Shown here: piece after piece, positions 1,626-62,067 of the stretch | Layout: the number at the start of each line of letters is the position of its first letter | Numbering within the stretch: the stretch's first letter is position 1 | DNA from: an uncultured Candidatus Saccharibacteria bacterium | GTDB lineage: Bacteria; Patescibacteriota; Saccharimonadia; Saccharimonadales; JAGQNJ01 | Assembly: GCA_964493895.1 (NCBI GenBank) | Contig: CAZBPY010000004.1 | Span: 13,271-77,270 of the forward strand | Length of the DNA: 64,000 bases | Direction of reading: 5' to 3' | Translations under genes and position numbers: made by a program | The notes under the pieces: model-generated | The model's database searches: none | Seen by the model: the letters and a program-made list of their open reading frames with translations, nothing else | Told to the model about the DNA's origin: nothing

Positions 1626-1643
1626 ACAGGAGCTCGATTAATA

Positions 1644-28672: not shown

Positions 28673-29368
28673 CTAGTTAGTGGATTGCTTGACAAGAGAT
28701 TTAAGTAGCCCCTCGAGATCTTCGAGGATCTGATCGGCACCACCAACTACAGCAATTTTGGCTGGAGTTTCCGCCAGCAATAGACGCATCATTTTTATGT
28801 GGCTATCAGAATACAACCCAGATTGGTGGGCAAAAAAAGCCTGGGCTTCAAAATCGAATTGATAAGAAGTGTTGGGCTCTAATTTGGCACCGTAAATGTC
28901 GGTGTTGAGATTCGGAGTGTGCCCGCCTAGCCGCAGGGCTTGCATGTACAACCATGATTCGGCTAAAACAATGCTCAGCGAAGTGTTATCCAAAGTCGCC
29001 AGCGTTCGCAGTAGGACATGGTAATAATCAGCCTCGCAATCATCTTGAGTGATTTTATCAATCAGTTTCAAGGCATTGTAGCCGGCTGTAGTCCGGTTGA
29101 TGTCGCTAACAATGCGACCATAATGGGTTACCAGACGAGCTGACACTAGAGTGCCGATGTCGCGTCGACCGACCAAAAAACTGATTTCTGATACACTAAA
29201 TAGCTCTATGCCGCCGGCCAGTTTGCTTTTGACCCGCCGAACACCTTTAGCCATTAGACGCAGTTTGCCATGTTCGGGCGTGATAATAGTGATGATCCGG
29301 TCAGCCTCCCCGAAGTTGATCCGGCCAAGAATTATGCCCCTGGTTTGTTGGCTATTCATGGTTAACAC
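28673..29368 (-). CDS. recO: DNA repair protein RecO
   Basis: GIILGRINFGEADRIITIITPEHGKLRLMAKGVRRVKSKLAG (OB-fold N-terminus). 231 aa. Confidence 0.9.
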   Translation of the reverse strand: MLTMNSQQTRGIILGRINFGEADRIITIITPEHGKLRLMAKGVRRVKSKLAGGIELFSVSEISFLVGRRDIGTLVSARLVTHYGRIVSDINRTTAGYNALKLIDKITQDDCEADYYHVLLRTLATLDNTSLSIVLAESWLYMQALRLGGHTPNLNTDIYGAKLEPNTSYQFDFEAQAFFAHQSGLYSDSHIKMMRLLLAETPAKIAVVGGADQILEDLEGLLKSLVKQSTN

Positions 29369-29738
29369 CTATACTTTCATCGACTAGCCAGCAAAGCTTT
29401 TCCAGACTAGTGTCAGATTTATAGTAATAGCCATTGATGCCAAGTTTGCTCTGGTCAGCGCTAGCCAAGTTTAGCCGGTCAGACTCCAGGCTGCTTAAAA
29501 TTAGTACCGGAATGGCTTGCCAATCGCTGTGGCTGCGAAGTTCATAGAGAAACTCGACACCGTTGTGATGCGGCAGTTGAATTTCCAGAATAATTAAATC
29601 TGGCAGTGCGGCATCGGTAGCATTGATTGCCGACTGGGCATCCTGCGCTCTTAGTACGTGATGACCTTCAGCCATCAAAGCCGAGGCGTAGGTCTTCGCC
29701 AAAACATGATCGGGTTCGACCAGTAACACCTGTGACAT
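29352..29738 (-). CDS. Stand-alone receiver-domain protein with a substituted phospho-acceptor (pseudo-receiver)
   Basis: Receiver fold with LLVEPD and PDLIILEIQLP, so Glu sits where the acceptor Asp is expected. The conserved S (VLILSS) and K (YYYKSD) are retained. Confidence 0.8.
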   Translation of the reverse strand: MSQVLLVEPDHVLAKTYASALMAEGHHVLRAQDAQSAINATDAALPDLIILEIQLPHHNGVEFLYELRSHSDWQAIPVLILSSLESDRLNLASADQSKLGINGYYYKSDTSLEKLCWLVDESIGVNHE

Positions 29739-35524: not shown

Positions 35525-36925
35525 CTACTCAATAGCCTCAATGACCACTGCTGTGCCATCATCTATTTTTCGCGAAACTCCAACAAGCTTATGAGCAACT
35601 TGTCCAGCATTGCCCCTGCAAGTTTGTATAATTTCTTGATCACTAAGAATTTCATAACCCCTATCTCCAGTAATGCCGTCGGTAACTAAAAGTAGACGGT
35701 CGCCCCGGTTAAGAGCTACTACCCCAGTTTGCCTTACGCCTTTGCTGCCGTCACCTAGGTGGTTATACAGAAAGTGTCCCTCACCTTCATCGCGTGACAA
35801 TTGTCGTAACTGGCTACGGCTATCTACCAGGTATATTCGTGAATCGCCGACAGAAGCCCATGCCGCATAGGGATGACTATTCCCCAAGGCATCCCGTATG
35901 TAGAGCACCTCTGAAATAAGTCCAGTTGTAATACCGCCTTCTCCAGATTTTTTAACAGCCGCATTAGCCCTTTCAAGCATTAATCGAATCCGTTCACGAG
36001 CGGCATCTTCTGAATCGACAGTTTTGCCAGTAATACTTAGGCTTTCGACCGCTGATTTTGCGGCTTGGGCAGCTGCTCGTCCACCGCTGTGTCCGCCGGC
36101 TCCGTCAAAAACAGCAAACAAGCCCTTTTCTTCGGATACATATGAAGCATCTTGGCCCTTCCTGACCTTCTCATCATGTCCTGCTCTAACATCTGGCACT
36201 AACAATTCACTGCCGGCTTCGGCGGACGGCTCGCCTACTGACTGTAGTTCTATGGGCAGTACCGGCTTGACAGTTGATTGGTCAGTTAAAACTTCAACTG
36301 TTGTTTCGTCATTGTCTAACTTGCTTTTTGCCTGGACAACACCGGTGCCATTCAATGACACATCAGTTACCTTAAGGCCCCTTTCAGTTACCTCAAAACT
36401 GACATGGCGACGCGAGACTAAAGGGCTGCTTGCCAGTTCCCGCAGACCTAGTCCAAGGCCGCTAGACAGATCGACTTCCAATATAATTTGTCCATCTTTC
36501 TGTATTATAAATCCGTTTCGTCCTATCGTTAAGCTATCCCCTGGCTCTGAACCAATACTAAGGGGGATCTCTTTTAACCTCTTAGCCCAGTCCTGGGACT
36601 CTGGCATGCCGTTAATAACCGGGGCTGACGGTGGACACAATACATACCCGACATCCGGTCTATAAGCAACTTTTAATCGATTGTCCGTTTGGCTACCGGA
36701 AGGCTGATCCATCTGAGGTAATTCAATGGTCGCTACAATGGCTGCGTCAGTTTCTTCATCTATGCTTAATGGCTGGTCAGGATCAAGCAGCGTGGATTCA
36801 TGTCGTAAAACAGCTTTTTCGATACTGTCCAGTTGTTCAAGTTGCAGGAGTTGTTGGTCTTTATGGTTCGGTATTCTGTCGTTGTCCATGCTACTAATAA
36901 TAGCATAGAAATGACATTTAGTCAA
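35525..36925 (-). CDS. FHA domain plus PP2C-family Ser/Thr phosphatase
   Basis: FHA: LTIGRNG...VSRRHVSFEVTERGLKVTDVSLNGTGV. PP2C: FAVFDGAGGHSGG, ASVGDSRIYLV, LLLVTDGITG. Confidence 0.85.
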   Translation of the reverse strand: MTKCHFYAIISSMDNDRIPNHKDQQLLQLEQLDSIEKAVLRHESTLLDPDQPLSIDEETDAAIVATIELPQMDQPSGSQTDNRLKVAYRPDVGYVLCPPSAPVINGMPESQDWAKRLKEIPLSIGSEPGDSLTIGRNGFIIQKDGQIILEVDLSSGLGLGLRELASSPLVSRRHVSFEVTERGLKVTDVSLNGTGVVQAKSKLDNDETTVEVLTDQSTVKPVLPIELQSVGEPSAEAGSELLVPDVRAGHDEKVRKGQDASYVSEEKGLFAVFDGAGGHSGGRAAAQAAKSAVESLSITGKTVDSEDAARERIRLMLERANAAVKKSGEGGITTGLISEVLYIRDALGNSHPYAAWASVGDSRIYLVDSRSQLRQLSRDEGEGHFLYNHLGDGSKGVRQTGVVALNRGDRLLLVTDGITGDRGYEILSDQEIIQTCRGNAGQVAHKLVGVSRKIDDGTAVVIEAIE

Positions 36926-36929
36926 TGGC

Positions 36930-38198
36930 TTAACGGGGATCTTGAGGCTCGATTTCGCTTTCTGGACGCCAGGTTAGTATTGGCCTTACCCTAAAAGTCT
37001 TGCCCGTCTGAGGATGCCCAAAGTCAGCCTCGGCCGGATCGTGAACAACAGATTCCACAAATCTTGGTCCCTCGGGACGTCCTTGAGCTGAAATTATATT
37101 TCTGACCTTATTATCAAGGGCGTTGCGGCGAACAGCGTCAACATCACTGCCGCCAGTTTCAGCAGAATAGTGCACATACGGTACGAATGCTTCGGCAGCA
37201 TCCTCTCCTGACTCTTCAGATCCGTACTTTGAGGTAGGCTTAACTTCTTGATCACCAACCAAACTCTGGGTCGGAACTTTCAGGTACTGGCCATTTCTAT
37301 AGACCCAGGTTTTATCTGGCGGCTGGCCAAGTTCTTCGGATGGATTGAGCACATCGCTTTCATCAACATACCCCCAACCAAGAGCCTGACTAAAGTTTGA
37401 GGTATCTGCTCCATGATCGGTGCCGTCAGAAAAGAGATGATATAACTCGTGAGTAAGGGTAGCTTGAGCTGCTGTCAGGTTTGGCAGCTGCTCATCTGTC
37501 TCGGTGGCCTTTTCTCTGTCAAAAATTAAACTATTGAGCCGAATTAGGCCCCTGGAGTGTATGGTTTGCCCCAAAGTGTCCAGATTAGAATCTGCTTGAG
37601 AAGCTTCACTAATAAGGTACTCTGGATCTTGTACGACAATATATTTAGCCAGCTGGCTACTAAGACCATTAGTGCGCTGCGAGACTGACTGTAAAACAGT
37701 TCTGATATCTTCAATTTCTTGTTCGGATAGCTGTCTTTTTGAAAGATTAAGTAGAGCTGTGCGCTGATCCCCATCAATAAACTCAATAAACTGTTGAAGT
37801 TGCCCGCCGTTTTCAATATTTCTAGCTAAATCAGGTTGCCACAAATACCAGGTAGCATCGCTCAGCAAGGCTTTAATTACATACTCGCTAGCTTGTTCCT
37901 CTATTCGGTTGCCGACAGCCTGGCGGTGATCTTGACGAATTTGGATTTCATCAATAGGTTTGCTAAAGCCATCTTCCATTTCTATATCGGTTACACTCGA
38001 GGGATCAAAATCCTCTGGCTCCAAATCAACATCCGCCCATATCTCCCCCTGCAAAGGGTTTATTTCTATGGTCGTGTCCATTAAGGCAGCTTCGGCCTCC
38101 CGACGAGCTTGGGCGGCTGTTATAAACACCTTATCCAGAGGCACAGGTTCGATGTTGCTGTGGTTCTCTTCTGGTGCGAATACTTCAGCTGCAGACAT
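36930..38198 (-). CDS. Hypothetical acidic protein with an HExxH zincin-like motif
   Basis: TLTHELYHLFSDG, with a downstream GSEESGEDAAEAF as a possible third ligand region. Its stop is 4 nt from the FHA-PP2C start. Confidence 0.4.
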   Translation of the reverse strand: MSAAEVFAPEENHSNIEPVPLDKVFITAAQARREAEAALMDTTIEINPLQGEIWADVDLEPEDFDPSSVTDIEMEDGFSKPIDEIQIRQDHRQAVGNRIEEQASEYVIKALLSDATWYLWQPDLARNIENGGQLQQFIEFIDGDQRTALLNLSKRQLSEQEIEDIRTVLQSVSQRTNGLSSQLAKYIVVQDPEYLISEASQADSNLDTLGQTIHSRGLIRLNSLIFDREKATETDEQLPNLTAAQATLTHELYHLFSDGTDHGADTSNFSQALGWGYVDESDVLNPSEELGQPPDKTWVYRNGQYLKVPTQSLVGDQEVKPTSKYGSEESGEDAAEAFVPYVHYSAETGGSDVDAVRRNALDNKVRNIISAQGRPEGPRFVESVVHDPAEADFGHPQTGKTFRVRPILTWRPESEIEPQDPR

Positions 38199-38224
38199 GT
38201 TTGTATTACTGTTCTAACACTTTA

Positions 38225-38253
38225 ATTATAGCACAAATTGACAGTCTATTCAA
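38225..38253 (-). promoter_or_regulatory. Promoter of the HExxH / FHA-PP2C gene pair
   Basis: Minus strand TTGAAT (38253-38248), 17 nt, TGcTATAAT extended -10 (TATAAT at 38230-38225). Confidence 0.5.
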
Positions 38254-38319
38254 GTAGCTGCGGTTTGGTGGGCAGTGAATTAAATGTCACTGTTCGTGCT
38301 CAAGTTATAATCGTCCTTG

Positions 38320-38700
38320 CTACTGCAAACCCAGGTGGTGTTTGATGCGCTCAATAACATCGGCTATGACAACCTGGGATTTGACCATGTAATCATCAGC
38401 TCCTAATTTGTCGGCTTTGTCCTTGTCAGTATCTTGCGACAAAGCTGTTAACATAACCACCTTGATATTTGCTGTTTCAGGAGTATTACGGAGGATATCC
38501 AAGACATCAAAGCCGCTAACTTTGGGCATCATGATATCAAGAACGATTAGATCTGGCCGAAACTCAATCGCCGCAGCCAGGGCGTCCTCGCCATTGGGAA
38601 CACGGCGAACATTAAAGCCCTCGGTTTCCAGACGAGTCTTGTAGACATTGGCCAAACCGTCGTCATCTTCAACCAGCAGTATCTTTTTTGGCGGGTTCAT
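38320..38700 (-). CDS. Stand-alone CheY-like receiver protein
   Basis: ILLVEDDD, DLIVLDIMMP, LTALS, KLGADDYMVKS. A close paralog of the receiver domain at 1644-2020. Confidence 0.9.
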   Translation of the reverse strand: MNPPKKILLVEDDDGLANVYKTRLETEGFNVRRVPNGEDALAAAIEFRPDLIVLDIMMPKVSGFDVLDILRNTPETANIKVVMLTALSQDTDKDKADKLGADDYMVKSQVVIADVIERIKHHLGLQ

Positions 38701-50880: not shown

Positions 50881-51246
50881 TTAGACTTGTCTGCGCGACC
50901 GAATTTTGGCCACCATGCGATGCGGTAAACGCATCCTTGAATGCGTTTCTTTGTACTTTTTAATTTGGTTTTTTAGCTTCGTCTCAATAATATCTACCGC
51001 TGCGTAAATATTCATGGTGGTCTCAGCAATCCTTAAAGTGTCGTGCGGCAGATTCAAAATCACCTCACAAGTATATTTTTGACCGCCCTTGGAGTTGTTG
51101 AGCTTTAACTTGACCACAAGATGAGCCGCTTCCCTAGCCCGTCGCGGAATAAATTTATCGACACTGCCAAGTTTTTTGGTGGCATACTTACGGAGCCTAG
51201 GTTCGACGTCCATATGAACGCCGGAAATTTCTAATTTTTGAATCAT
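50881..51246 (-). CDS. hpf: Ribosome hibernation promoting factor / RaiA family (short form)
   Basis: 121 aa. Beta-alpha-beta-beta-beta-alpha pattern with IYAAVDIIETKLKNQIKKYK. The start overlaps the serS stop. Confidence 0.8.
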   Translation of the reverse strand: MIQKLEISGVHMDVEPRLRKYATKKLGSVDKFIPRRAREAAHLVVKLKLNNSKGGQKYTCEVILNLPHDTLRIAETTMNIYAAVDIIETKLKNQIKKYKETHSRMRLPHRMVAKIRSRRQV

Positions 51247-52541
51247 GCTAGTTTCTCTTTATTGTTCATATATGGCCGCAGCACTTCTGGGATAGTCACC
51301 GAGCCATCGCTATTCTGATAATTTTCCAGTATTGCAATCAGCGGCCTTTCCGAAAACACTGTAGCATCATTAGTGTGAGCCAGTTCGGTGACACCATCAG
51401 TCCGATGGACCTTAGTGCGCATACCTCGAGCCTGAAAATCAGTTATATGATCAGCTGTGTGCGTTTCACGGTACTGACCCTGAGCCGGCAGCCAAACATT
51501 AATATCAACGCCTTTGGCGTTAGGAAAACCAATATCGGCCGTGCACTTTTCTAGAACCTGATAAGGCAAGCCCAGTTGCTGCATTAAATATTCCTGTATG
51601 GCTACCTGGAAGAGATGCTCATCAAGTGACCGATCAGCGGTGGTAAAGCTTTCCATCTCTAATTTATTAAACTGATGCAAACGGAAAATGCCCTCGGTAT
51701 CTTTGCCATAGCTGCCGGCTTCACGACGAAAGGCTGTGGTGTAACCCACCAACCGCAGCGGTAAATCTTTCTCATCTAGAGTTTCGCCTAAAAACATTGG
51801 CGACAAAGTGTGTTCGGCACTGGCGTTTAACCATAAGTCTTCGTCTTCAAGTTTGTAAGTCATTTCTTCGCGATTTAATCGACCGGTAGCTTCGAAAACT
51901 TCTGTTTTAGCCACGGCTGGCGGCAAAACAAAAGTAAACGGTTTAGGGCTAACTTCCAGATTGTTATCTTCGGCAATTTGAGCCAGAATCTTTTGGTCGG
52001 TTAAGATATCGATGCCGTACTGCCACAAGGCAAATTCCAGCCTGGCCAAATCACCCATGATGTAGGCAAAGCGGGCACCGGCAACCTTGGCGGCTCTCTC
52101 CTTGTCCAGCCAGCCGTGTTTTTCAGCTAGTTCAGCGTGACTTTTAGGTTTAAAGGCAAAGTCCGGTTTTTCACCCACGGTTCGAACCACGACATTTTCT
52201 TCTTCGCTCGAACCAACTGGAACTTCCGGCAAGGCTATATTTGGTATTTTGCGTAAGCCAGCCTTAAAGTCGGCTTCGAGTTTTTCTAGTTGATCCTCCT
52301 TGGTCGATAGCTCATCCTTGATCTGTTTGCCTTTTGTGATATCTGCTTCAGATGGTTTGCTACCTTTGGCGGCATGCGCTAGTCTATTGCGCTGAGCCCT
52401 TAGGTTCTCAACCTCGGTGATTAGCTCCCGGCGCTGTTCATCAACCTTCAGCAAAGCCTTTACATCGACTTCATAACCCTTGGCTCGAGCATTGGCGGCC
52501 ACAGCATCAGGATTGTCCCGAATAAACTGGATGTCTAACAT
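51243..52541 (-). CDS. serS: Serine--tRNA ligase
   Basis: MLDIQFIRDNP N-terminal coiled-coil arm. Class II motifs (FRREAGS, RLHQFNKLE, GQYRETHTADH-type region). 432 aa. Confidence 0.95.
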   Translation of the reverse strand: MLDIQFIRDNPDAVAANARAKGYEVDVKALLKVDEQRRELITEVENLRAQRNRLAHAAKGSKPSEADITKGKQIKDELSTKEDQLEKLEADFKAGLRKIPNIALPEVPVGSSEEENVVVRTVGEKPDFAFKPKSHAELAEKHGWLDKERAAKVAGARFAYIMGDLARLEFALWQYGIDILTDQKILAQIAEDNNLEVSPKPFTFVLPPAVAKTEVFEATGRLNREEMTYKLEDEDLWLNASAEHTLSPMFLGETLDEKDLPLRLVGYTTAFRREAGSYGKDTEGIFRLHQFNKLEMESFTTADRSLDEHLFQVAIQEYLMQQLGLPYQVLEKCTADIGFPNAKGVDINVWLPAQGQYRETHTADHITDFQARGMRTKVHRTDGVTELAHTNDATVFSERPLIAILENYQNSDGSVTIPEVLRPYMNNKEKLA

Positions 52542-52596
52542 GATTACCTATTATTATACCAGGTTTGACGCTGCAGTTTATAGCCGCACCTCCCTG

Positions 52597-53364
52597 TTAT
52601 TTAGCTTTAATGTGATCGAGTGTCAACTTGGTACGCTGCCGAGCATACTCACAAAAATCACAAGGTCCGCCCATGGCCGCCGTCCCAACCTCTGGCATAT
52701 CACCTTCCAGGGTGTCTTTCATCTGCATTAAAGTTTTCTCCACCCACTTGTCACTGCCCCTGTAGGGGATGATTTTGGTCCGGAATTCAACTCGGTCATA
52801 AAAACCCTCGACATCAAGACGGCCATTTGCATAAACAAAGTATCCGGTGTCACTGACTTTAAAGCCATTTTGCCTAAGCAACCATTGATAGACCTCGATC
52901 TGTCGTTTGTAGGCAATCTGCCAATCCGAGTCAATATTTACTTCGCTGGCTTTGGCAGTAGCCTTATAGTCAACCACTATTAGCTCTTGGTTGGAATTGA
53001 CCCAGATATCATCGACTGCGCCAGTCACTAGCAGATTAGATGGCTGGTGCAAAACCTGAATACCGACAAAATTTTCTCGCCATTTATCCAGATCATCATG
53101 AGCAAACGGTATAGCCTCGACGCTATACTCTTGCATGATGGCATGCGGTGTACCCTTTTTACGGTGAACGTCAAATTCTTTTTTCAGCAGTTCATCGATA
53201 GCCGAATTAATTCGAAATGGCGGGCTGCTGGGACGTCTGATCTTCAACCGGGCATCCAACCAAAAGCAACGCCGGCACTGTTTGAATAGTTCAATCTTGC
53301 TGCGGCTAACTTTAAAGGCCGCTTTTTGGCCAGGTTTATACGGCAAAGCCCTTTGATATCCCAT
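52597..53364 (-). CDS. PD-(D/E)XK nuclease, Cas4/RecB-like, with four Cys
   Basis: N-terminal CRRC and C-terminal CDFC. GAVDDIWV, VVDYKAT (D-x-K) and QIEVYQW motifs. 255 aa. Confidence 0.7.
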   Translation of the reverse strand: MGYQRALPYKPGQKAAFKVSRSKIELFKQCRRCFWLDARLKIRRPSSPPFRINSAIDELLKKEFDVHRKKGTPHAIMQEYSVEAIPFAHDDLDKWRENFVGIQVLHQPSNLLVTGAVDDIWVNSNQELIVVDYKATAKASEVNIDSDWQIAYKRQIEVYQWLLRQNGFKVSDTGYFVYANGRLDVEGFYDRVEFRTKIIPYRGSDKWVEKTLMQMKDTLEGDMPEVGTAAMGGPCDFCEYARQRTKLTLDHIKAK

Positions 53365-53381
53365 AGGCTTTTATTGTAGCA

Positions 53382-54161
53382 CTACGGACGCAGTGCTCCG
53401 AAGAAGACCTGCCAAGCTAAAGCTGACTTGGCCACCAGGCTTAAAATCATATAAGCCCTTTCACCGTAGAGGTAATCTTTCCAGGATCCAATTTTTTTGT
53501 ATTGCAAATACATATTGACAGCAAAACAGTTGAAAAACACCAATAAGCTGCCGAAAATCCAGTAAACAAAGCTAGGGATTTGGCCACTGCCGTAAACATT
53601 AGATCCCCAGAGGTAAATTGCCACCACAACCCATGGCACAAGGCCGGCTTTACCGCCCAAAATAAATGGCAGCCAGTTAACTTTTCGAGACTTGCCGTTC
53701 CAAACCTCCATAATTAGTCCAGTTCCGTTCATTACAGCCGTTAAGGCAAAGATCATCAGCAGGCTAGCTAGGTCATAAACACCGGCCAAAATAGCAATGG
53801 CCACCATCATGATACTAGCGCTAAAGGCATATTCATACCATCTAGCCGGATTGAGATTACTCTTGAGGTTTTTCTCATACCATCTGCGGCAAAACGTCGC
53901 TAAACTGATGTGAGCCAAAGCTGATGCCAAGAAGAAAGCCGCCACTAGCCAGGCTAGATTAACATCAAAGATCACCTGCGACGCTGGTACCAATTGAACC
54001 GAGTCGCCGGCAGTTAGGCTGTTTGGCGTCAAAAAACTAATACTGATCGGAAAGGATGCGGCTTTGGCCAGTACTAGTACTGCCACCGCCTGCACTGCAT
54101 GCAAGCCGGCCAACACAAAATTCCAAGTTCGCAAATGTTCGAAGTTAACTGTTTTTTTCAT
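53382..54161 (-). CDS. Heliorhodopsin (7-TM retinal-binding protein)
   Basis: 259 aa, 7 TM. C-terminal signature YLQYKKIGSWKDYLYGERAYMILSLVAKSALAWQVF with the Schiff-base Lys (K245). E110 in RWYEYAFSAS. H21 and H84 at family-typical positions. Confidence 0.85.
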   Translation of the reverse strand: MKKTVNFEHLRTWNFVLAGLHAVQAVAVLVLAKAASFPISISFLTPNSLTAGDSVQLVPASQVIFDVNLAWLVAAFFLASALAHISLATFCRRWYEKNLKSNLNPARWYEYAFSASIMMVAIAILAGVYDLASLLMIFALTAVMNGTGLIMEVWNGKSRKVNWLPFILGGKAGLVPWVVVAIYLWGSNVYGSGQIPSFVYWIFGSLLVFFNCFAVNMYLQYKKIGSWKDYLYGERAYMILSLVAKSALAWQVFFGALRP

Positions 54162-54173
54162 GTCTTTACTTTA

Positions 54174-54701
54174 CTACTTCTTGAGACGAGCCGCAAACTT
54201 GTCACGCAACTTTTTCAGCTTTGGATTTATTACTACTTGACAGTAAGCCGCTTCGGGGTGTTTTTGATAGTAATTATGGTGCTCAGGTTCAGCTTCATAG
54301 AAAACTTGGAGCGGCTCTACCTCTGTTACGATCGGGTCAAGCCAAAGCTTTTGAGCTTTATCAATTGACCGACGAACAATACCTTCTTGCTCTGGCGAAT
54401 TGAACAAAATAATTGAACGATATTGCGGACCAACATCATTACCCTGCCGATCCGGAGTAGTCGGATCGTGAATAGTCCAAAAGATATCCAGGATGTCCTC
54501 TAGACTGATAATTTCCGGATTAAAGGTCACCTGCACAGTTTCAGCCCAGCCGTCATCACTGCCATGCAAAGTAGCATATGACGGTTGCGGCCCCTGTCCG
54601 CCGGCATAGCCTGGTACAATCTTCTCAACACCATCAACTAGTTGGTAGGCCGCCTCCAGGCACCAGAAACAACCTCCGCCGAGAACTATTGACTGACTCA
54701 T
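54174..54701 (-). CDS. msrA: Peptide methionine (S)-S-oxide reductase
   Basis: GGGCFWCLEAAY active site. 175 aa. Confidence 0.94.
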   Translation of the reverse strand: MSQSIVLGGGCFWCLEAAYQLVDGVEKIVPGYAGGQGPQPSYATLHGSDDGWAETVQVTFNPEIISLEDILDIFWTIHDPTTPDRQGNDVGPQYRSIILFNSPEQEGIVRRSIDKAQKLWLDPIVTEVEPLQVFYEAEPEHHNYYQKHPEAAYCQVVINPKLKKLRDKFAARLKK

Positions 54702-54874
54702 TTATTTTGTTTGGTAGCCAGCATAGTGATGGCCATTAGCGCAAAACCAATTCCCATACCAATGAACAGTCCGGCCGCAGTATTGCCCAAAGCAATGCCG
54801 ACGCCCATACCGCCGATGATCCCGGCTGGCACGAAAATTGCCCCAGGATTACTGTCTTCTTTATTTTTTGCCAT
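54698..54874 (-). CDS. Unannotated 58-aa glycine-zipper membrane protein, translationally coupled to msrA
   Basis: Not in the ORF track because it is shorter than 60 aa. SD GGGAGGG lies 5 nt before the ATG at 54874. Sequence MAKNKEDSNPGAIFVPAGIIGGMGVGIALGNTAAGLFIGMGIGFALMAITMLATKQNK. Its stop TGA overlaps the msrA ATG (ATGA). Confidence 0.6.
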   Translation of the reverse strand: MAKNKEDSNPGAIFVPAGIIGGMGVGIALGNTAAGLFIGMGIGFALMAITMLATKQNK

Positions 54875-54900
54875 TTTGCCCTCCCTTTTTAGTTACTTAT

Positions 54901-57294
54901 TTACTCTTGTTGAGCTTTCCGGCGTCGATACCATGCATAAAACGCACCAGCCAGGGCGAGCAGAATAAGCAGCCACCACCATGACAGAGCGCTGCCAACT
55001 TTTTCAGTTGTTGCCGCAGAAACTTTGACATTGTCAGCATTCACCTCACCTGCTTGCTCGTCAGTGTCTTCAGTTTCACCCTCAACACCTTGGGCTACTT
55101 GATCTCCATCGCCACCGCCATCGCCGCCCCCGGCTCCATCAGGTCCAGCTGGGCCGGCACCGGCAGCTCCGGCTCCTCCATCAGCAGCAGTTGCTGCTAG
55201 AGGCTGGAAGAATAGTGTTGGTCCACCACCGCCGTCTTGGCCGCCGCCTCCATTTCCGCTAAGGACTATATTGAAGTCATCGGTTGGCTCTGGGTCAGCC
55301 TGGTTGCCAGCTTGGTCAACGGCTGATACAACAACATTGTAGCTGCCGATTGACAAAGATGGAGTAATGAATGACCAGGTTCCACCGGTGTTTTGAGCTT
55401 CTTTTGGAGTGTCGCCATTGATTGATACAAGCACTGTGGCATCTGGATCATTAATTGTTCCGGATAATGTCAGAACTGTATCGCTGGTGTCATCAATTGA
55501 GTCGAGTGTCACAACCGGAGCTGTATTATCGACAGTTACAGTGATCTTGGCAACAGATGGCCCGGGATTAGCTCGCGATCCATCTTTGTTATTGGCTTGG
55601 TCGCGTGTCTCGAAGTAAATGGTGTATTCCCCGTCCTCAAGACCGACAGTATCCCAATCTAATTCGTGAACCAACACTCCGTTAGTAAGCAAGCTTGTCT
55701 TTACATAGCCATTGGGCCCTTCGATACGGAAATAACTGTTCATTGGGTTATCATCAGTTACTTCGCCGACTAGCTTAACTAGGCCATTTACGAAATCGCC
55801 ATCATTATGAGATGTAATCTCCGCAAGAGGCGCATGACGGTCGATTGTAAAGTTTCGAACTAGCGTGGTTGACAGCGTATCTGATACATCCCGAGCATTG
55901 GCCTTGACGTAATAATCGCCATCGGCCAGACCGCTAGTATCACATGACAGAGTGAATTCATCGACGTTAAGAGCCAGGACATTTTTAGTACATGACTTAA
56001 TTAGTTGATTGGCGCTAGTGTAGATGTGGCCAGTAACCTGTTTTAGTTTGACGTTGTCGGTTGCTTTCACTTGAACCAGGCTATTAAAGATTGAGCTATC
56101 AACTGTTGGTTCGAGAATTTCGATGGTTGGTTTGGTTTTGTCATAGTAATAGTGGACTGGGTCGCTCCAATCACTGGCATTGCCAGCATTGTCAAAGGCT
56201 CGTACTCGAATGGTCACACCACCCTGCTCGAAAGTTGCCGGACTATGGTTGCGTTTGGATTGGTTGCCAGCAGTTTCACGGTACGGCCCGCCGCTAAAAC
56301 TGTGACCATCATCGTAAATGTACTCAATTTGGTACTTATTAATGCCATTAGCGTCTGTCGAATCTGTCCAGTCGTTTAGGATTGGTGAACTAGTGAAGGC
56401 TTGCTCATTCAATGGTTTTTCGATCTGGGGCGTTGTCGGAGCAACATTGTCAAAAGTTACTGTAAATGGCGTACTGTAATCAGAGCATAGATCCCCATTA
56501 CAGGCACTGAATGAGAAATAATGTATTCCAGGTCCTTGGGTAAAGTTGTCGTGGTAAACACCCAGACCTGATGAATAGCCGGCCAGATCAGTTGGGTTCC
56601 ATGGAGTACCTACTTTAAATGGTGAGCCGACTATGTCGTTCCAATACTTCAACTGATATCTAGTTACTGTCCCAGCGGAGTTAAGGCTAAAAATAAAGTG
56701 CTGTGAATCGGTTAAGCCTCCGTCAGGAACAACTTCACCGCTTGGATCTTCAGTAAAAGTGGCTGTTGGTACTTGGGGCGGCGGAGCTAATATATCAAAC
56801 AGAGTCCAATCAAAACGTTCGTCGGCTTCTGCACCAAAGGTGGACCTTATCTCAACATAATCATTACCTAAAAATTGCTTATCTGTACTGGAGTGACCGT
56901 TTACACAAAAGGCTGGATAACGATCTTCGACAGCCGGATTTGGATTTGGGCTGGCTAGAGCCTGACCTATATCACCATCTGTTCGATACTCAAAGCAACT
57001 TATATGATTAGCGGATATTTGGGTGCCGCCGTAAAAGCGCATGGTTATTTTTCCAGGGACGCTATCATCGAGAACTTCGGCATGTGCCCAACCATTGGTC
57101 ACATTATTCGCATGAGTGCTGGGATAGGCATAGGCAGCTCTAGCAATGTCTGGGTGAGATAATCCGACAGCTACTGCCGCCAAAGCAAAGCCTACGGCCA
57201 TCGCTCCATGGTATAAATGTCGAATCTTTTTGTTAAGGTTTTTGTATGAATTGAAAATGCGTTTAGTTCGCATAACTATGCTCCTCTGTTCCAA
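54901..57294 (-). CDS. Large secreted/cell-surface protein with Ig-like repeats, a Gly/Asp-rich stalk and a C-terminal TM anchor
   Basis: 797 aa. Signal-like N-terminus (AVGFALAAVAVGLSHPDIARA). Repeated beta-rich modules (DNVAPT, DKTKPT, DNTAPV linkers). GGGGQDGGGG...GGGDGGGDGD. C-terminal WWWLLILLALAGAFYAWYRRRKAQQE. Confidence 0.75.
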   Translation of the reverse strand: MEQRSIVMRTKRIFNSYKNLNKKIRHLYHGAMAVGFALAAVAVGLSHPDIARAAYAYPSTHANNVTNGWAHAEVLDDSVPGKITMRFYGGTQISANHISCFEYRTDGDIGQALASPNPNPAVEDRYPAFCVNGHSSTDKQFLGNDYVEIRSTFGAEADERFDWTLFDILAPPPQVPTATFTEDPSGEVVPDGGLTDSQHFIFSLNSAGTVTRYQLKYWNDIVGSPFKVGTPWNPTDLAGYSSGLGVYHDNFTQGPGIHYFSFSACNGDLCSDYSTPFTVTFDNVAPTTPQIEKPLNEQAFTSSPILNDWTDSTDANGINKYQIEYIYDDGHSFSGGPYRETAGNQSKRNHSPATFEQGGVTIRVRAFDNAGNASDWSDPVHYYYDKTKPTIEILEPTVDSSIFNSLVQVKATDNVKLKQVTGHIYTSANQLIKSCTKNVLALNVDEFTLSCDTSGLADGDYYVKANARDVSDTLSTTLVRNFTIDRHAPLAEITSHNDGDFVNGLVKLVGEVTDDNPMNSYFRIEGPNGYVKTSLLTNGVLVHELDWDTVGLEDGEYTIYFETRDQANNKDGSRANPGPSVAKITVTVDNTAPVVTLDSIDDTSDTVLTLSGTINDPDATVLVSINGDTPKEAQNTGGTWSFITPSLSIGSYNVVVSAVDQAGNQADPEPTDDFNIVLSGNGGGGQDGGGGPTLFFQPLAATAADGGAGAAGAGPAGPDGAGGGDGGGDGDQVAQGVEGETEDTDEQAGEVNADNVKVSAATTEKVGSALSWWWLLILLALAGAFYAWYRRRKAQQE

Positions 57295-57407
57295 ATGCCT
57301 CCACCTGGCTGTTACGGATTAAGCCTACCATATTTTTAAGAAAAAGTTAATAATTGGAGCAATATTACAACAAACCGCTTATGCCTCTAAAGGCAGGTGA
57401 AGTGTGA

Positions 57408-57599
57408 TTAGCCCAGCAGCGCCTGCAAGCCGTAATAGACGATATAGGCTGGCCAGACGCATGCCTGCAAGAAAGCTACGACGATGTTCCAAAAGCCATC
57501 GGCGCGGCCAACGAAAAACACTAGCGCCCCGATCCAGGCCGTGAAAAATACCCAGCCACCGGGTCCGTGATTAGCTACTTTTTGACTATTCTTTCCCAT
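57408..57599 (-). CDS. Small two-TM membrane protein (hypothetical)
   Basis: 63 aa with two hydrophobic helices. Co-oriented with its neighbours. Confidence 0.45.
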   Translation of the reverse strand: MGKNSQKVANHGPGGWVFFTAWIGALVFFVGRADGFWNIVVAFLQACVWPAYIVYYGLQALLG

Positions 57600-57647
57600 A
57601 ACTTCCCTCCCTCTTGTTGTTCGCTACATAAATGGTAACACTATGGG

Positions 57648-58154
57648 CTATCGATCGATAGAGGACACTACAGCCTGCATTTTAACGGCCCAGCCCTGCC
57701 CATCCTCTCCCTCTAAGCTAATCATATGATAGTAAACCGGTCCGGTCGGAAAAGTTCGATCAGAAAGAGTTACATGCCAGTTTTGAGCTACCGGATCTTG
57801 CGGATCGCGGCGCGGCACGTGGTCAGTCGTCGAGACGTCGCCGGCTGGTACCTTATCCAGGTACTCTTCCCATAGCCTTCGTTCCTCAAGGTAACGCTTA
57901 ATAGCCACCTGCCTTGCATAAGCAATTGTCGGCTTCTGGGCACTGTTATAGCCAGCTATCATTACAGGTTTTGTGGGACGCTGGGCGACAACTCTCTCCA
58001 CACCTCTGCCTATAGCAGTAGTGTACCTCGTGATTAGTTTAGCCAACCGGCTGCTGGCCGCAGCATCTGGACCAGGCTGACCATCAACCAACTCATTTGA
58101 CTCTAGCACTTCGCTAGAGTGTTTTAACCAAGCATCTATTTCATGACTGTTCAT
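57648..58154 (-). CDS. Hypothetical protein (168 aa)
   Basis: ORF preceded by a promoter-leader-terminator unit (58193-58338). No motif recognised. Confidence 0.55.
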   Translation of the reverse strand: MNSHEIDAWLKHSSEVLESNELVDGQPGPDAAASSRLAKLITRYTTAIGRGVERVVAQRPTKPVMIAGYNSAQKPTIAYARQVAIKRYLEERRLWEEYLDKVPAGDVSTTDHVPRRDPQDPVAQNWHVTLSDRTFPTGPVYYHMISLEGEDGQGWAVKMQAVVSSIDR

Positions 58155-58192
58155 AAGTTCTTACTGCTAATTTCATGTATTAATCATAAAGC

Positions 58193-58218
58193 AAAAAAGG
58201 ACCGCGGGGGCCCTTTTG
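58193..58218 (-). terminator. Intrinsic terminator, 38 nt upstream of the next start codon
   Basis: The minus strand reads AAAAGGGCC CCCGC GGTCCTTTT followed by TTGC, an 8-bp stem with one mismatch and then a U-run. Confidence 0.5.
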
Positions 58219-58303
58219 TGCCTGCTAGTAAGGCTACGGGAGTCTTGCTAGCCAACAAGCGGAACTATTGCTAGCACTACTTGCTTGTCACCTCACAATG
58301 ACA
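58219..58303 (-). promoter_or_regulatory. Candidate cis-regulatory leader or small RNA with three CTAGCA repeats
   Basis: Lies between the promoter (58310-58338) and the terminator (58193-58218). Hairpins GTCA(8)TGAC, CAAGC(22)GCTTG and GCTAG(19)CTAGC. The motif GCTAGCAA/GCTAGCAA/ACTAGCAG occurs three times. Confidence 0.4.
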
Positions 58304-58309
58304 GGTCTA

Positions 58310-58338
58310 ACTATAACCCTCATCAAGCGCGCCGTCAA
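58310..58338 (-). promoter_or_regulatory. Sigma-70-type promoter downstream of lysS
   Basis: Minus strand TTGACG (58338-58333), 17 nt, TATAGT (58315-58310). Confidence 0.5.
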
Positions 58339-58395
58339 GATATCATTGTAAAAACTACAAATTATGATATAAATGCTTATGTTTATGTTTCGGAG

Positions 58396-59907
58396 TTAAT
58401 CGAAGTTGATGTCGGGGTAAATTGCCCTGGTGGTGGCATCGATCTCTGCCCTAAGTTGCGGGAATGGCACGCCTTCACGGGCTGAAACACCTTCAAATAC
58501 CCAAAAAACTCTTTCCGAATAACCCAAACCGCAAGCCGGCGGCATGCCATACTCCAGCATCTCGACATAATCAATATCCAGCATCTGGGCTTCATCGTCA
58601 CCCTCGTCGCGCAGGCGCTGCTGCTCCATGAAACGCTCTAATTGATCAATCGGGTCGTTCAGCTCACTCCAACCATTACACAGCTCCGAACCAGCAATAA
58701 CTGCTTGAAAACGCTGTACAAATCGTCCATCCTTGTCATCGGTCTTCGACAACGGCGAAATAAACGTCGGTGTGTCGATCAGCCAAACTGGACCGGCGAC
58801 CTCGGCACGAACCTTTTTCCATAACTTATCAATACCGCGAGCTCGATTTTCAGTCTTCTCGACCTCAATATTATGTTTCTTAAGTTGGGCTTTGACTTCA
58901 TCTAAAGTGCAATCAAAAACATCCAGGCCGTAGTGTTCTTTAATAACATCAGCGTATTTCCATCGCTCCCAACGAGCACCCATATCAACTTGCTTGCCCT
59001 CAATAGTGAACTTCAGGGTTCCGAAAGTTTCTTTGAGGACTTGTTTGAACATTTCCTCCATCATGGCCATGCCGTCTTGCCAGTCGGCATAAGCCCAGTA
59101 CCACTCCATGGCCACGTGTTCGGGCAAATGCTCATCGGAGTAATTTTCGTTTCTAAACCGCGGACCGATATCAAAAACCTTCTCAAAACCGCCGCCCAAC
59201 AAACGCTTGAGGGGTAATTCATGGCTAATGCGCAAGTAAAAATCCTGATCCAAGGCATCCATGTGCGTCACAAATGGCGTAGCATCAGCCCCACCAGTGG
59301 TGTGTTCTAAAACTGGAATGTTGATTTCTAGAAAGTCACGTTTGAGGAGAAAATCACGCGTAGCTTGCCAGAACTTGCTGCGGCGCACAAACCTTTGGCG
59401 CACCTCTGGATTGACGTTCATGTCAACATAGCGTCGGCGCATCCGCTCTTCTTTATTAGTAAAGCCATTCTCGGCCGTTGGCATAGGTCGTAGCGACTTG
59501 GTTAGTAGGCGCAACTTCTCGACATCAACTGAAATCTCGCCAGTTTGAGTCTTGACCACCTTGCCGCTGGCTTCGACAAAATCGCCCGGATCTAACAGGC
59601 TCAGATCAGTAAATTCTAACTCACTGTTTTTATAATCAGCCGATTCAATGCCGCCAGATCGCAAAAACAATTGGACATCACCGCTAGCGTCGCGCAGGAC
59701 TACAAAGGCTAGTTTACCAATGTCACGAATCCGGATAATTCGGCCGACAACCGAGACCTGTTGGCCTTCTAGGCTGGAAAAATCCTTGATGACTTCAGCG
59801 TTGGTGTGGGTACGATTTGAATTAGCCGGATAGGGGTTAACTCCCAAATCACGCAATTGTTTAAGTTTACGTAGCCGCTCATCGCGCAGCTCTTGCAGGT
59901 TTGCCAT
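58396..59907 (-). CDS. lysS: Lysine--tRNA ligase (class II)
   Basis: 503 aa. OB-fold N-terminus (VSVVGRIIRIRDIGKLAFVVLRD). Class II motifs (FRNE, GGADATPF region, GLGYSERV). Confidence 0.95.
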   Translation of the reverse strand: MANLQELRDERLRKLKQLRDLGVNPYPANSNRTHTNAEVIKDFSSLEGQQVSVVGRIIRIRDIGKLAFVVLRDASGDVQLFLRSGGIESADYKNSELEFTDLSLLDPGDFVEASGKVVKTQTGEISVDVEKLRLLTKSLRPMPTAENGFTNKEERMRRRYVDMNVNPEVRQRFVRRSKFWQATRDFLLKRDFLEINIPVLEHTTGGADATPFVTHMDALDQDFYLRISHELPLKRLLGGGFEKVFDIGPRFRNENYSDEHLPEHVAMEWYWAYADWQDGMAMMEEMFKQVLKETFGTLKFTIEGKQVDMGARWERWKYADVIKEHYGLDVFDCTLDEVKAQLKKHNIEVEKTENRARGIDKLWKKVRAEVAGPVWLIDTPTFISPLSKTDDKDGRFVQRFQAVIAGSELCNGWSELNDPIDQLERFMEQQRLRDEGDDEAQMLDIDYVEMLEYGMPPACGLGYSERVFWVFEGVSAREGVPFPQLRAEIDATTRAIYPDINFD

Positions 59908-59935
59908 TACTTGAATTGTACGTGCCTTAGTGGCT

Positions 59936-60406
59936 TTAGTAAATATCGACGATTTTATAAGTCATGGTTTCGACAGGAGTTTTGATTTCAACCTCGTCGC
60001 CTTCTTTTTGTCCCATCAAAGCCTTGCCAATCGGTGATTCATCAGAAATTTTGCCGTTCATTGGGTCGGCTTCGACAGTTCCGACAACTCGGAATTCTTT
60101 CATTTTCCCGCCCTCTTTAGCCTTCAATTTGACGCCTGACCCTAAGCGGACCTTGCTATCGTTGGTTGGCTTTCTAATAACTTCAACGTTTTGGAGGATA
60201 TTCTCGATTTCAGCAATTCGAGTCTCGGCCTTTTCCTGCTCTTCGCGGGCAGCTGCATATTCGGCGTTTTCAGCCAAATCACCGAATTCGCGGGCAGTCT
60301 TGATGCGTTCGGCAATTGGAATACGTTCGGCCAATAGCGACTCTAGCTCAGCTTTTAGCTCAGCTACACCTTCTTTGGTCAAATGGAATTGCTTCTTCAT
60401 AGACAC
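59936..60406 (-). CDS. greA: Transcription elongation factor GreA
   Basis: LTKEGVAELKAELESL, GDLAENAEYAAAREEQ, C-terminal ISDESPIGKALMGQKEGDEV. 156 aa. Confidence 0.94.
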   Translation of the reverse strand: MSMKKQFHLTKEGVAELKAELESLLAERIPIAERIKTAREFGDLAENAEYAAAREEQEKAETRIAEIENILQNVEVIRKPTNDSKVRLGSGVKLKAKEGGKMKEFRVVGTVEADPMNGKISDESPIGKALMGQKEGDEVEIKTPVETMTYKIVDIY

Positions 60407-60484
60407 CTCTTTTCCTGCACATCTACCTCAAGAATTATTAAATTTTTCTTAAATTCCAGGAGTTGCTGTATTATAGCAAGCTCT

Positions 60485-61738
60485 TCAAGTCCTGGCCAAT
60501 TTTTCCAGCAACTCATCTTCTGTAATCATTTTTGCTTCAGTTTCTGTTCTGCTTTTATATTCAATTTTGCCCTGTTTAAGCGTTTTTTGACTGATCACCA
60601 CTCGGTGTGGAATGCCTAACAAATCGGCATCGGCAAATTTCTCGCCCGGCCTCATATCACGGTCATCGTAAAGTACCTCGACTCCTTGCTGAGAGAGATT
60701 GTCATACAGACTATCAGCCGCTGAGGCTACTTGTTCGTCTGCCTCCAGACGGACAACAATTACCTGGGCCGGAGCAATCTCCTCTGGCCAAACCAGGCCG
60801 TTGTTATCCGAAAACAGTTCGGCAATTGTGCCCATCACCCGGCTGACACCGATGCCATAGCAGCCCATGATCAGGGTCTGCTCTTGGCCATTTTCGTCAA
60901 TCACCGCCAGGTCAATCGGAGCCGAAAACTTAGTACCTAGGCTGAAGATGTTGCCTACTTCAATGGCTCGGGCTTCCTCTAGCTCCTCGCGGTTCAAACC
61001 AAGTTCAGATAGAACTTCATCAAACAGTACCTCTTTGTTAACAGCGATATTCTTATCACGACTGATGTAAATAGTGTCCTCACCGGCCTCTGATAAAGTC
61101 TGGTATTCGTGGCTGTATTTGCTAAAGCTGCCGCCGCTGGCAAAAGTCATGAACGTTCGATCACCCAGACCAAATCTCTGATAAATTTTTGCGTAGGCCT
61201 CTTGAGCCTTTTTATAGAACTCGTCGTGCATTTCCTGAGACGTGGCAAACGAGTACATGTCCTTCATCAGAAACTCGCGGCCACGCATCAGTCCACTTTT
61301 ACTACGAAGCTCGTTACGAAACTTGGTTTGTATCTGGTAGATAGCCAGTGGCAGGTCACGGTAGGACGAGACATACTCCTTGACAATTGGTGTCAGGTTT
61401 TCTTCGTGCGAAAACCCCAAACCCAACTCAGTGCCATTTACTAGCTTGGTTTTAAACCAATTATCAACCACCTTGTCATCCCAGCGGCCAGTGGCTTCAT
61501 AGCGTTCTTTTATCTGCAGAGCCGGCATCGACACCTCCTGAGCGCCCATGGCATCCATTTCTTCGCGGATAATTTGCTCGACTTTGCGCAGCACTTTCAG
61601 CCCCAGCGGTAAATAGCTATACACCCCGGCCATCTCCTTATGGATGTAACCGGCCTGTATCAGTAACTGGGCATTCTTGGCCGTCTCGTCAGCTGGAACA
61701 TCTTTGCGAGTCCTAGTAAATAATTTTGATAGTCTCAC
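60485..61738 (-). CDS. proS: Proline--tRNA ligase, bacterial type, lacking the INS editing domain
   Basis: Start set at GTG 61738 (VRLSKLF... aligns with the canonical MR.S.L N-terminus). That GTG overlaps the upstream stop (GTGA). Motif 2 FRNELRSKSGLMRGREFLMKD and motif 3 GCYGIGVSRV are only ~130 aa apart. The ORF track extends to 61765. Confidence 0.92.
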   Translation of the reverse strand: MRLSKLFTRTRKDVPADETAKNAQLLIQAGYIHKEMAGVYSYLPLGLKVLRKVEQIIREEMDAMGAQEVSMPALQIKERYEATGRWDDKVVDNWFKTKLVNGTELGLGFSHEENLTPIVKEYVSSYRDLPLAIYQIQTKFRNELRSKSGLMRGREFLMKDMYSFATSQEMHDEFYKKAQEAYAKIYQRFGLGDRTFMTFASGGSFSKYSHEYQTLSEAGEDTIYISRDKNIAVNKEVLFDEVLSELGLNREELEEARAIEVGNIFSLGTKFSAPIDLAVIDENGQEQTLIMGCYGIGVSRVMGTIAELFSDNNGLVWPEEIAPAQVIVVRLEADEQVASAADSLYDNLSQQGVEVLYDDRDMRPGEKFADADLLGIPHRVVISQKTLKQGKIEYKSRTETEAKMITEDELLEKLART

Positions 61739-62067
61739 CTTAGCACCCCTTTTCTTCTGCTGCATTTTACCATGTCGGTGACCAGGGCGCGAACCAACTT
61801 ATTGCGGTAGCCAAATTGGGCTTGTTGGCGGGCAGTCTTCATCTCAGCGGCGATCATTTCTTCGTCGCCAGAGCAAAAGGCGTCGCGTAAATTAGACTTT
61901 AATCCATGGAAGTGGTTGTTTTCTGATAGCAATTGGTCCAGGGCCGCTTTACTGACTGCCCGGACTTTCACATCATTTTCTATAGCTACTTGTTGTTCAA
62001 TTGACAGTTCAAAAGCGGCTTCGACAGCCATCTCTAAGCTTTTAGACAAAATTACTGAGTGGTTCAT
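61735..62067 (-). CDS. Hypothetical helical protein (110 aa) coupled to proS
   Basis: ATG 62067 is preceded by GGAGAG. Its stop overlaps the proS GTG. No motif recognised. The ORF track starts at TTG 62079. Confidence 0.55.
   Translation of the reverse strand: MNHSVILSKSLEMAVEAAFELSIEQQVAIENDVKVRAVSKAALDQLLSENNHFHGLKSNLRDAFCSGDEEMIAAEMKTARQQAQFGYRNKLVRALVTDMVKCSRRKGVLR

Follow-up and report, generated by a model that had tools for sequence, protein, structure and literature searches.

What does a heliorhodopsin do in a bacterium of which a 64-kb stretch shows no gene for making retinal, the chromophore on which such a protein depends? The question is raised by a gene in a 64,000-nucleotide stretch of contig CAZBPY010000004.1, the whole of which is referred to below as the window:

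53382..54161, minus strand: heliorhodopsin (HeR) coding sequence, 259 amino acids plus stop codon, recognized as an open reading frame (ORF) and by Pfam, NCBIfam, AlphaFold2 and Foldseek

On its sequence, the product is a canonical and intact HeR of the prokaryotic type exemplified by TaHeR of the Thermoplasmatales archaeon SG8-52-1 (PDB 6IS6 and 7U55), encoded on the chromosome of a member of Candidatus Saccharibacteria, which form part of the candidate phyla radiation (CPR). By homology, it probably acts as a light sensor or regulator with a slow, non-transporting photocycle, loading retinal scavenged from outside the cell and working together with a partner.

The initial annotation of this DNA had placed a 259-residue ORF at exactly these coordinates and left its strand unstated; the strand is minus, with the ATG at 54161 and the stop codon at 53382-53384. 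The frame has neither a frameshift nor an internal stop, and the plus-strand frame over the same interval is interrupted by many stop codons. The protein ends in ...GALRP, and the C-terminal string quoted in that annotation corresponds to residues 209-257. A public NCBI protein (P0001), encoded on an 83,446-bp contig, is 100% identical to it and is annotated at 244 amino acids, i.e., 15 residues shorter, with its start at V16 (GTG); the N-terminal region affected by this difference is window 54116-54161 on the minus strand. The homologues align from residue 2-3, the Pfam model begins at residue 10, and L10, W13 and N14 are conserved. Given that both the homologues and TaHeR align from near the N-terminus and that these three residues are conserved, the correct start is the ATG at 54161, yielding 259 amino acids, and not that of the 244-residue call.

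The initial annotation had proposed that this ORF encodes a heliorhodopsin, and profile searches agree, with scores that chance could not give. The protein matches hidden Markov models of the family from end to end, both in Pfam (PF18761, Heliorhodopsin; E=1e-88, 297.2 bits where the cutoff is 26.7, all of positions 1-242 of the 242-position model being covered) and in NCBIfam (NF038020, the HeR equivalog; E=6e-90, 301 bits against a cutoff of 100, positions 1-244 of 244), and its predicted fold is that of the solved HeRs. Among PDB sequences the best match is TaHeR (6IS6/7U55, E=6e-71), followed by 48C12 (E=2e-44). The residues expected around the chromophore are encoded at the following positions, where TM denotes a transmembrane helix:

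54099..54101, minus strand: codon of H21 in TM1, equivalent to TaHeR H23
53910..53912, minus strand: codon of H84 in TM2, equivalent to TaHeR H82
53832..53834, minus strand: codon GAA of E110 (within RWYEYAFSAS of TM3), the one counterion of the Schiff base, equivalent to TaHeR E108
53427..53429, minus strand: codon AAG of K245, the Schiff-base lysine of the SLVAK motif, with S241 four residues earlier, equivalent to TaHeR K238 and S234

All four stand where the initial annotation had put them (H21 in AGLHAVQ, H84 in SALAHIS, E110 in RWYEYAFSAS and K245 in SLVAKS), and the alignment to TaHeR that it had suggested as a check pairs the lysine, the glutamate and both histidines with K238, E108, H23 and H82. 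With the numbering of the TaHeR PDB chain, which is offset by 6 from that of the literature, corrected before residue mapping, the larger set H21/H84/E110/S114/S241/K245 aligns with TaHeR H23/H82/E108/S112/S234/K238. Five of these residues (H21, H84, E110, S241 and K245) are invariant in 120 of the 120 closest database homologues. The Schiff-base motif of TM7 is SxxxK (S241-L-V-A-K245), as defined for HeRs (PMC9166423 and PMC9601134), and not the DxxxK of type-1 rhodopsins, and the TM3 counterion E110 (E108 in TaHeR, E107 in 48C12) is followed by a serine, S114, as is typical of the family. Nothing points to a type-1 rhodopsin: PF18761 is the sole Pfam match at E<=1, with neither a PF01036 match nor a DxxxK motif.

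The AlphaFold2 model, built with 39 homologues (pLDDT, the predicted local distance difference test score, 88; pTM, the predicted template-modelling score, 0.84), comprises seven helices and, linking TM1 to TM2, the long beta-hairpin characteristic of HeRs, which spans residues 36-68 (strands 36-46 and 57-68). When this model is searched with Foldseek, TaHeR comes first, with a TM-score of 0.86-0.91, and 48C12 reaches 0.82-0.88; E-values for HeRs run from 1e-14 to 8e-21, whereas type-1 rhodopsins remain at E>=3e-4 with query-normalized TM-scores of <=0.65. Across the membrane, 12 lysine and arginine residues lie on the side of the N-terminus (counted together with loops 2-3, 4-5 and 6-7) versus 2 on the opposite side, and the positive-inside rule therefore predicts the inverted topology by which the family is defined, with the N-terminus inside.

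The likeness to TaHeR extends over the full length (48-50% identity) and takes in the fold, the H23/H82/E108/S112/S234/K238 set, F203 and Q213, and the architecture of the lateral fenestration. The differences are that TaHeR comes from an archaeal host, that the TM1-TM2 and TM5-TM6 loops of the window HeR are longer by 4 and 5 residues, respectively, that Y164 and C168 are replaced by F166 and G170, and that I199 is replaced by L206. The founding actinobacterial member, 48C12 (PDB 6SU3 and 6UH3), shares the same key residues and fenestration at 38-39% identity (TM-score 0.82-0.88); it is more distant than TaHeR and belongs to an actinobacterium of the same freshwater habitats. The nearest company is found within the phylum itself. 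The window HeR is 52-79% identical to many proteins from metagenome-assembled genomes (MAGs) of Saccharimonadia and other CPR bacteria, with none above 79% except its own NCBI record. These HeRs (PMC9166423, PMC8612252) share the phylum, the family, the SLVAK motif and a proposed sensory or oxidative-stress role, and no difference in kind separates the window protein from them. Eighty HeRs, the majority with SLVAK, have been catalogued in Saccharimonadia, and SLVAK is the commonest TM7 motif among CPR HeRs (Chiriac et al. 2022, PMC9166423).

The host assignment comes from a scan of 185,579 species-representative genomes, which yielded 445 HeR relatives, the best 80 of whose 445 loci were analysed and underlie the locus counts given below. 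Almost all of these 80 are from Candidatus Saccharibacteria, Saccharimonadales or Patescibacteria MAGs, and the closest (L001) has 75% identity in HeR, 85% in SecA and the same gene order; the window's own genome is absent from these GTDB representatives. Because the HeR relatives are almost all of Saccharibacteria type and L001 is syntenic, the window can be placed in a Saccharibacteria (CPR) genome, in agreement with the reduced genome that had been supposed at the outset. Its contents are chromosomal housekeeping genes, including a dcw cluster (MraZ, RsmH, a penicillin-binding protein (PBP), MraY, FtsW and MurG), along with SecA, HPF, a release factor, FtsEX, CTP synthase and topoisomerase I. 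Five aminoacyl-tRNA synthetases are also encoded, as are a PAS histidine kinase and several response regulators.

Where, then, would the retinal come from? A Pfam scan of the window's other 60 main ORFs, each of at least 100 amino acids, found no carotenoid, beta-carotene dioxygenase or bacteriorhodopsin family among them, 12 of the 60 being without any Pfam match; the earlier statement that no blh or crt gene lies in the window thus stands. The same statement had treated the chromophore source as an open question, a point on which it had been overtaken, since the matter has already been addressed for Saccharibacteria: rhodopsin-bearing bins that are 79-98% complete have no blh, all-trans retinal supplied from outside is taken up by their rhodopsins within 30 s, Actinobacteria (Nanopelagicales) are the likely retinal donors, and the Saccharibacteria are proposed to obtain retinal from their hosts (Jaffe et al., PMC9296517). 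If the genome-wide lack of synthesis seen in the phylum is extrapolated to it, the cell that carried the window almost certainly takes its retinal from outside. Two known systems offer precedents for such dependence. The host of TaHeR, as cited in PMC9296517, is likewise devoid of retinal synthesis, and the SacR proteins, type-1 proton-pumping rhodopsins of Saccharibacteria with a DTS motif (PMC9296517), share both the phylum and the reliance on external retinal. SacR proteins differ in belonging to another rhodopsin family with the opposite topology and in pumping protons, and the window has no such gene.

A route into the protein can be proposed from the following region:

53520..53666, minus strand: TM5-TM6 stretch mapped to TaHeR, with the fenestration residues F166/G170/G173/F210/N211/A214 and the transport-related positions L206/F210/Q220

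The six fenestration residues align with TaHeR Y164/C168/G171/F203/N204/A207, and they form what may be seen as a putative entry port for exogenous retinal or carotenoid. For TaHeR, retinal capture through a small opening is cited by Jaffe et al. (PMC9296517). The working of the protein may then be pictured as follows. Retinal, not made by the cell, would be released by hosts or neighbours and captured via the fenestration, in the way that has been proposed for TaHeR and the type-1 rhodopsins of Saccharibacteria; all-trans retinal would be bound covalently at K245; green light would isomerize it and set off a slow, non-transporting photocycle; and the cytoplasmic loops would then modulate a partner protein or a signalling pathway, making HeR a light switch that is plausibly tied to photo-oxidative stress.

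Published work gives this picture its footing. The initial annotation had called HeR function largely unresolved, a description now partly out of date: glutamine synthetase (PMC9529153), photolyase (PMC9769723) and an ABC transporter (PMC11109279) have each been reported as partners under HeR regulation, and viral HeRs as transporters of protons (PMC9448325). A link between HeRs and photo-oxidative stress, CPR bacteria included, has been argued by Bulzu et al. (PMC8612252) and Chiriac et al. (PMC9166423). The pairs AbHeR-glutamine synthetase, TfHeR-photolyase and OcHeR-OmrDE ABC transporter illustrate the likely mode of action, wherein a photoactivated HeR modulates a partner encoded nearby. 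They differ from the present case in that none of those partner genes lies beside the window HeR, whose neighbours, MsrA and a nuclease, are not HeR-specific. The immediate neighbours are MsrA, a 58-residue TM peptide, a PD-(D/E)XK nuclease and SerRS, of which the adjoining MsrA and nuclease are candidates for a partner by proximity alone.

Several observations weigh against reading the protein as such a partnered sensor. Ten neighbour classes have been published for HeRs (PMC11109279), namely glutamine synthetase and NAD+ synthetase, photolyase, MerR and TerC, as well as ABC transporter, short-chain dehydrogenase/reductase, alpha/beta hydrolase, DUF2177 and DUF2238, and none of the ten flanks the gene. 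MsrA, the attractive neighbour, shows no HeR-specific association, as set out below. A two-component system was considered as a partner and rejected, as the kinase and response regulators lie ~14.7-52 kb away. The functional part of the reading, that is, pigment, photocycle, transport and partner binding, rests on homology and conserved residues, and the absence of retinal synthesis was seen in 64 kb, with the rest of the genome extrapolated from the phylum.

The same fenestration invites a different interpretation, in which HeR would be a two-chromophore light harvester with an exogenous xanthophyll lodged there as a second antenna beside retinal. A preprint (bioRxiv 10.1101/2025.11.27.691015) defines a carotenoid-site motif, in 48C12 numbering, by two opposing aromatics at 162 and 206, by residues that are not bulky at 166 and 210 and by Gly at 169, and reports the site in 91.3% of HeRs. 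The window HeR has the motif complete, with the aromatic pair F166/F210, the non-bulky G170/A214 and the glycine G173, plus the conserved N211. However, the preprint is unreviewed and builds its proposal on docking and on sequence motifs, carotenoid binding by a prokaryotic HeR was not found in the literature consulted, and the output of such an antenna is left unexplained. The opening is explained equally well as the retinal entry port described in PMC9296517, which at that point cites Shihoya 2019. A xanthophyll antenna is unlikely, even though it fares best among the alternatives to a sensor loaded with scavenged retinal.

Could the partner instead be sought among the genes next door? The immediate surroundings are as follows:

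52597..53364, minus strand: PD-(D/E)XK-family nuclease (Pfam PDDEXK_1, E=2.2e-12), beginning 17 nt past the HeR stop
54174..54701, minus strand: MsrA, peptide methionine sulfoxide reductase (Pfam PMSR, E=5.5e-54), with its stop 12 nt upstream of the HeR start
54698-54874, minus strand: ORF of a 58-residue glycine-rich single-TM peptide (…GIIGGMGVGIALGNTAAGLFIGMGIGFALMAI…), overlapping the MsrA start codon by 4 nt
54901-57294, minus strand: 797-residue predicted surface protein with bacterial Ig-like domains (Big_13, Big_3_3), a low-complexity tail rich in Gly, Ala and Asp, and a TM anchor at its C-terminus

This arrangement lends itself to the view that HeR is a light-dependent regulator that, once illuminated, binds and activates MsrA (which repairs oxidized methionines), the nuclease or both, in the manner of the HeR-photolyase and HeR-glutamine synthetase pairs. 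The three genes share a strand and are spaced 12 and 17 nt apart, and no promoter- or terminator-like site between them occurs above the chance number. MsrA lies upstream of HeR, at no more than 1.7 kb, in 41 of the 80 loci, and it does so in two subtypes with ~39% mutual identity, both at the same backbone position (L001 and L023 versus L004 and L060). Operon partners are bound by HeRs in the published precedents (PMC9529153, PMC9769723, PMC11109279), and an oxidative-stress role has been proposed for CPR HeRs (PMC9166423). The literature search found no paper linking HeR with MsrA.

The wider comparison, however, makes this view an improbable one. Most of the 80 loci have in common a backbone, spanning ~51243-61765 in the window, that runs from ProRS through GreA and, in some, LysRS to optional DUF427, MsrA and opposite-strand sortase genes and then to HeR, and that continues past HeR with an optional HAD, RsmE or TrmA-like gene into the nuclease, SerRS, HPF, SecA and M16. 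The variable inserts around HeR are thus DUF427, the opposite-strand sortase, the HAD hydrolase, RsmE and the TrmA-like methyltransferase. As a reverse control, 80 metagenome loci were fetched via the nuclease gene, irrespective of HeR, and the 22 backbone loci among them in which the upstream sequence reached 4 kb or more were tabulated:

HeR present: MsrA present in 7 loci, absent from 6
HeR absent: MsrA present in 6 loci, absent from 3

There is no association between the two genes in these 22 loci (odds ratio 0.58, Fisher p=0.67), and MsrA can therefore be regarded as a backbone resident with or without HeR. In L115, for instance, 151 nt separate MsrA and the nuclease, and HeR is missing from the interval. 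In 17 of the 80 loci the opposite-strand sortase splits MsrA from HeR, which means that co-transcription is not conserved, and HeR loci outside the backbone are without MsrA. All the main genes from ~35.5 to 64 kb of the window are co-directional with short gaps, and because the stretch is so tightly packed, the gaps of 12 and 17 nt carry little information. The scan for promoters and terminators between MsrA, HeR and the nuclease gave counts not above those of shuffled controls and was uninformative. The proximity of MsrA and HeR is a shared backbone position and not evidence of functional coupling; such coupling, an initial lead from the 41 of 80 loci and the two MsrA subtypes, was downgraded on account of the control and the sortase interruption.

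The nuclease was likewise rejected as a HeR-specific partner. It is a backbone gene together with SerRS, HPF, SecA and M16; it lies within 10 kb of HeR in 59 of the 80 loci, downstream in all but one, adjoins HeR in only 5, and is often separated from it by HAD, RsmE or TrmA-like genes. Distinctly improbable is the most specific form of the idea, in which HeR would in this lineage be co-transcribed with MsrA and an iron-sulfur (Fe-S)-type nuclease and would serve as a retinal-dependent switch that physically activates the repair of protein and DNA damage in daylight. Were it true, an episymbiont would be timing its photo-oxidative defence with a host-derived chromophore. MsrA falls outside the published classes of HeR partners. 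The lesson of the locus may be seen as one of caution in the use of synteny: the tempting MsrA-HeR "operon" reflects a backbone location common to both genes and does not mark a specific functional pairing.

A sensor with scavenged retinal also has to be set against a light-driven or light-gated proton transporter, which would add to the energy supply of a CPR cell living by fermentation, in the way of the viral V2HeR3. Some HeRs do transport protons (PMC9448325), and Saccharibacteria pump them with type-1 rhodopsins (PMC9296517). V2HeR3 belongs to the same family and has the same counterion Glu and Schiff-base Lys; its transporter hallmarks are a Glu at E191, a gate Trp at W195 and a Glu or Gln at 205 (PMC9448325). 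The window HeR, however, lacks E191, W195 and E205: the aligned residues are L206, F210 and Q220, which are those of TaHeR (I199, F203 and Q213) except for Ile at the first position, so that the hallmark Glu and Trp are absent and Q220 is the one residue permitted. The closest solved relatives, TaHeR, at 48-50% identity, and 48C12, showed no transport, and their extracellular half is hydrophobic (PMC9448325); prokaryotic HeRs are characterized in the same paper by a slow photocycle without transport. An ion transporter was rejected on residues L206/F210/Q220, and transport is to be considered highly improbable.

It is scarcely credible that the gene is a relic, whether decaying or independent of light, for although a HeR-family clade without the lysine exists at the same syntenic position, the window HeR keeps all the chromophore-site residues, five of them invariant across 120 homologues, and has no frameshift or internal stop and a confident AlphaFold2 model.

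With these alternatives set aside, the window HeR is best seen as a clean, canonical CPR representative of its family, with all its chromophore residues, an intact fenestration and ~50% identity to the crystallized TaHeR. Being canonical, intact and close to TaHeR, it is suitable for expression studies of light sensing in retinal-scavenging episymbionts. As a discovery it matters little: HeRs with the same motif set in Saccharimonadia and the identical sequence are already public, which makes it an already known protein, and for the rhodopsins of Saccharibacteria retinal auxotrophy is a question already posed and, in part, answered by experiment. At the level of the lineage, HeR looks to have been passed on vertically in one constant location and to have been lost or to have degenerated repeatedly.

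The lysine-less clade, which came to light in the reverse control, is more unusual than the window HeR itself. Very divergent HeR-family proteins (24-36% identical), which score above the Pfam HeR threshold along their whole length and have lost the chromophore site, are found in other Saccharibacteria at this syntenic position; examples are L085 (8403-9350), L094 (9160-9990), L118 (3927-4820), L131 (3111-3917) and L091, with proteins P0132-P0182, and these loci place them between MsrA or LysRS and the PD-(D/E)XK nuclease. A search with the L085 protein retrieved at least 51 protein clusters. In all 51, the equivalent of K245 is Ala, Ser, Thr or Val; E110 is replaced by Gly, Ala, Ser, Leu or Thr, H21 by Leu (in 48) and H84 by Phe or Tyr (in 48), and 42 have Gly for S241, while the end of TM7 carries a conserved "LALQIFAGA". 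Some of these proteins bear the NCBI label "heliorhodopsin HeR". Because published surveys of HeRs filter on the TM7 lysine (PMC9166423, PMC9601134), proteins of this kind would be discarded in them, and our literature search found no paper on lysine-less heliorhodopsins. Their residue pattern suggests a light-independent role of the HeR scaffold in some CPR bacteria.

Some further features of the neighbourhood may be recorded. The two MsrA subtypes are told apart by their motifs, CFWC (as in the window) and the classic GCFWG, and their occurrence at one position suggests that one was replaced in place by the other in Saccharibacteria. The nuclease has four invariant cysteines (C30/C33/C235/C238) and a mean column identity of 72% across Saccharibacteria; this set presumably resembles the Fe-S clusters of Cas4/AddB-type nucleases. 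The 58-residue peptide has no Pfam match, and among the ORFs of 70 amino acids or more that adjoin HeR in L001 none matches it. The 797-residue surface protein is poorly conserved (49% identity over 227 amino acids in L001) and is possibly a host-attachment protein of the episymbiont. HeRs are described as confined to monoderm hosts. Saccharibacteria, or Patescibacteria, are generally regarded as monoderm-like; the envelope-related genes seen here are those for MurG, FtsW, MraY and the PBP in the window, and that for the sortase in relatives.

Scans of the 64-kb window for tRNAs and for Rfam families gave no matches. Signalling genes lie at window 84-2801, 29352-29738 and 35525-38700, none of them near HeR. 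They comprise the PAS histidine kinase with an adjoining response regulator, a PP2C phosphatase and two receiver-domain proteins that stand alone; so much signalling within 64 kb is notable where the genome is reduced.

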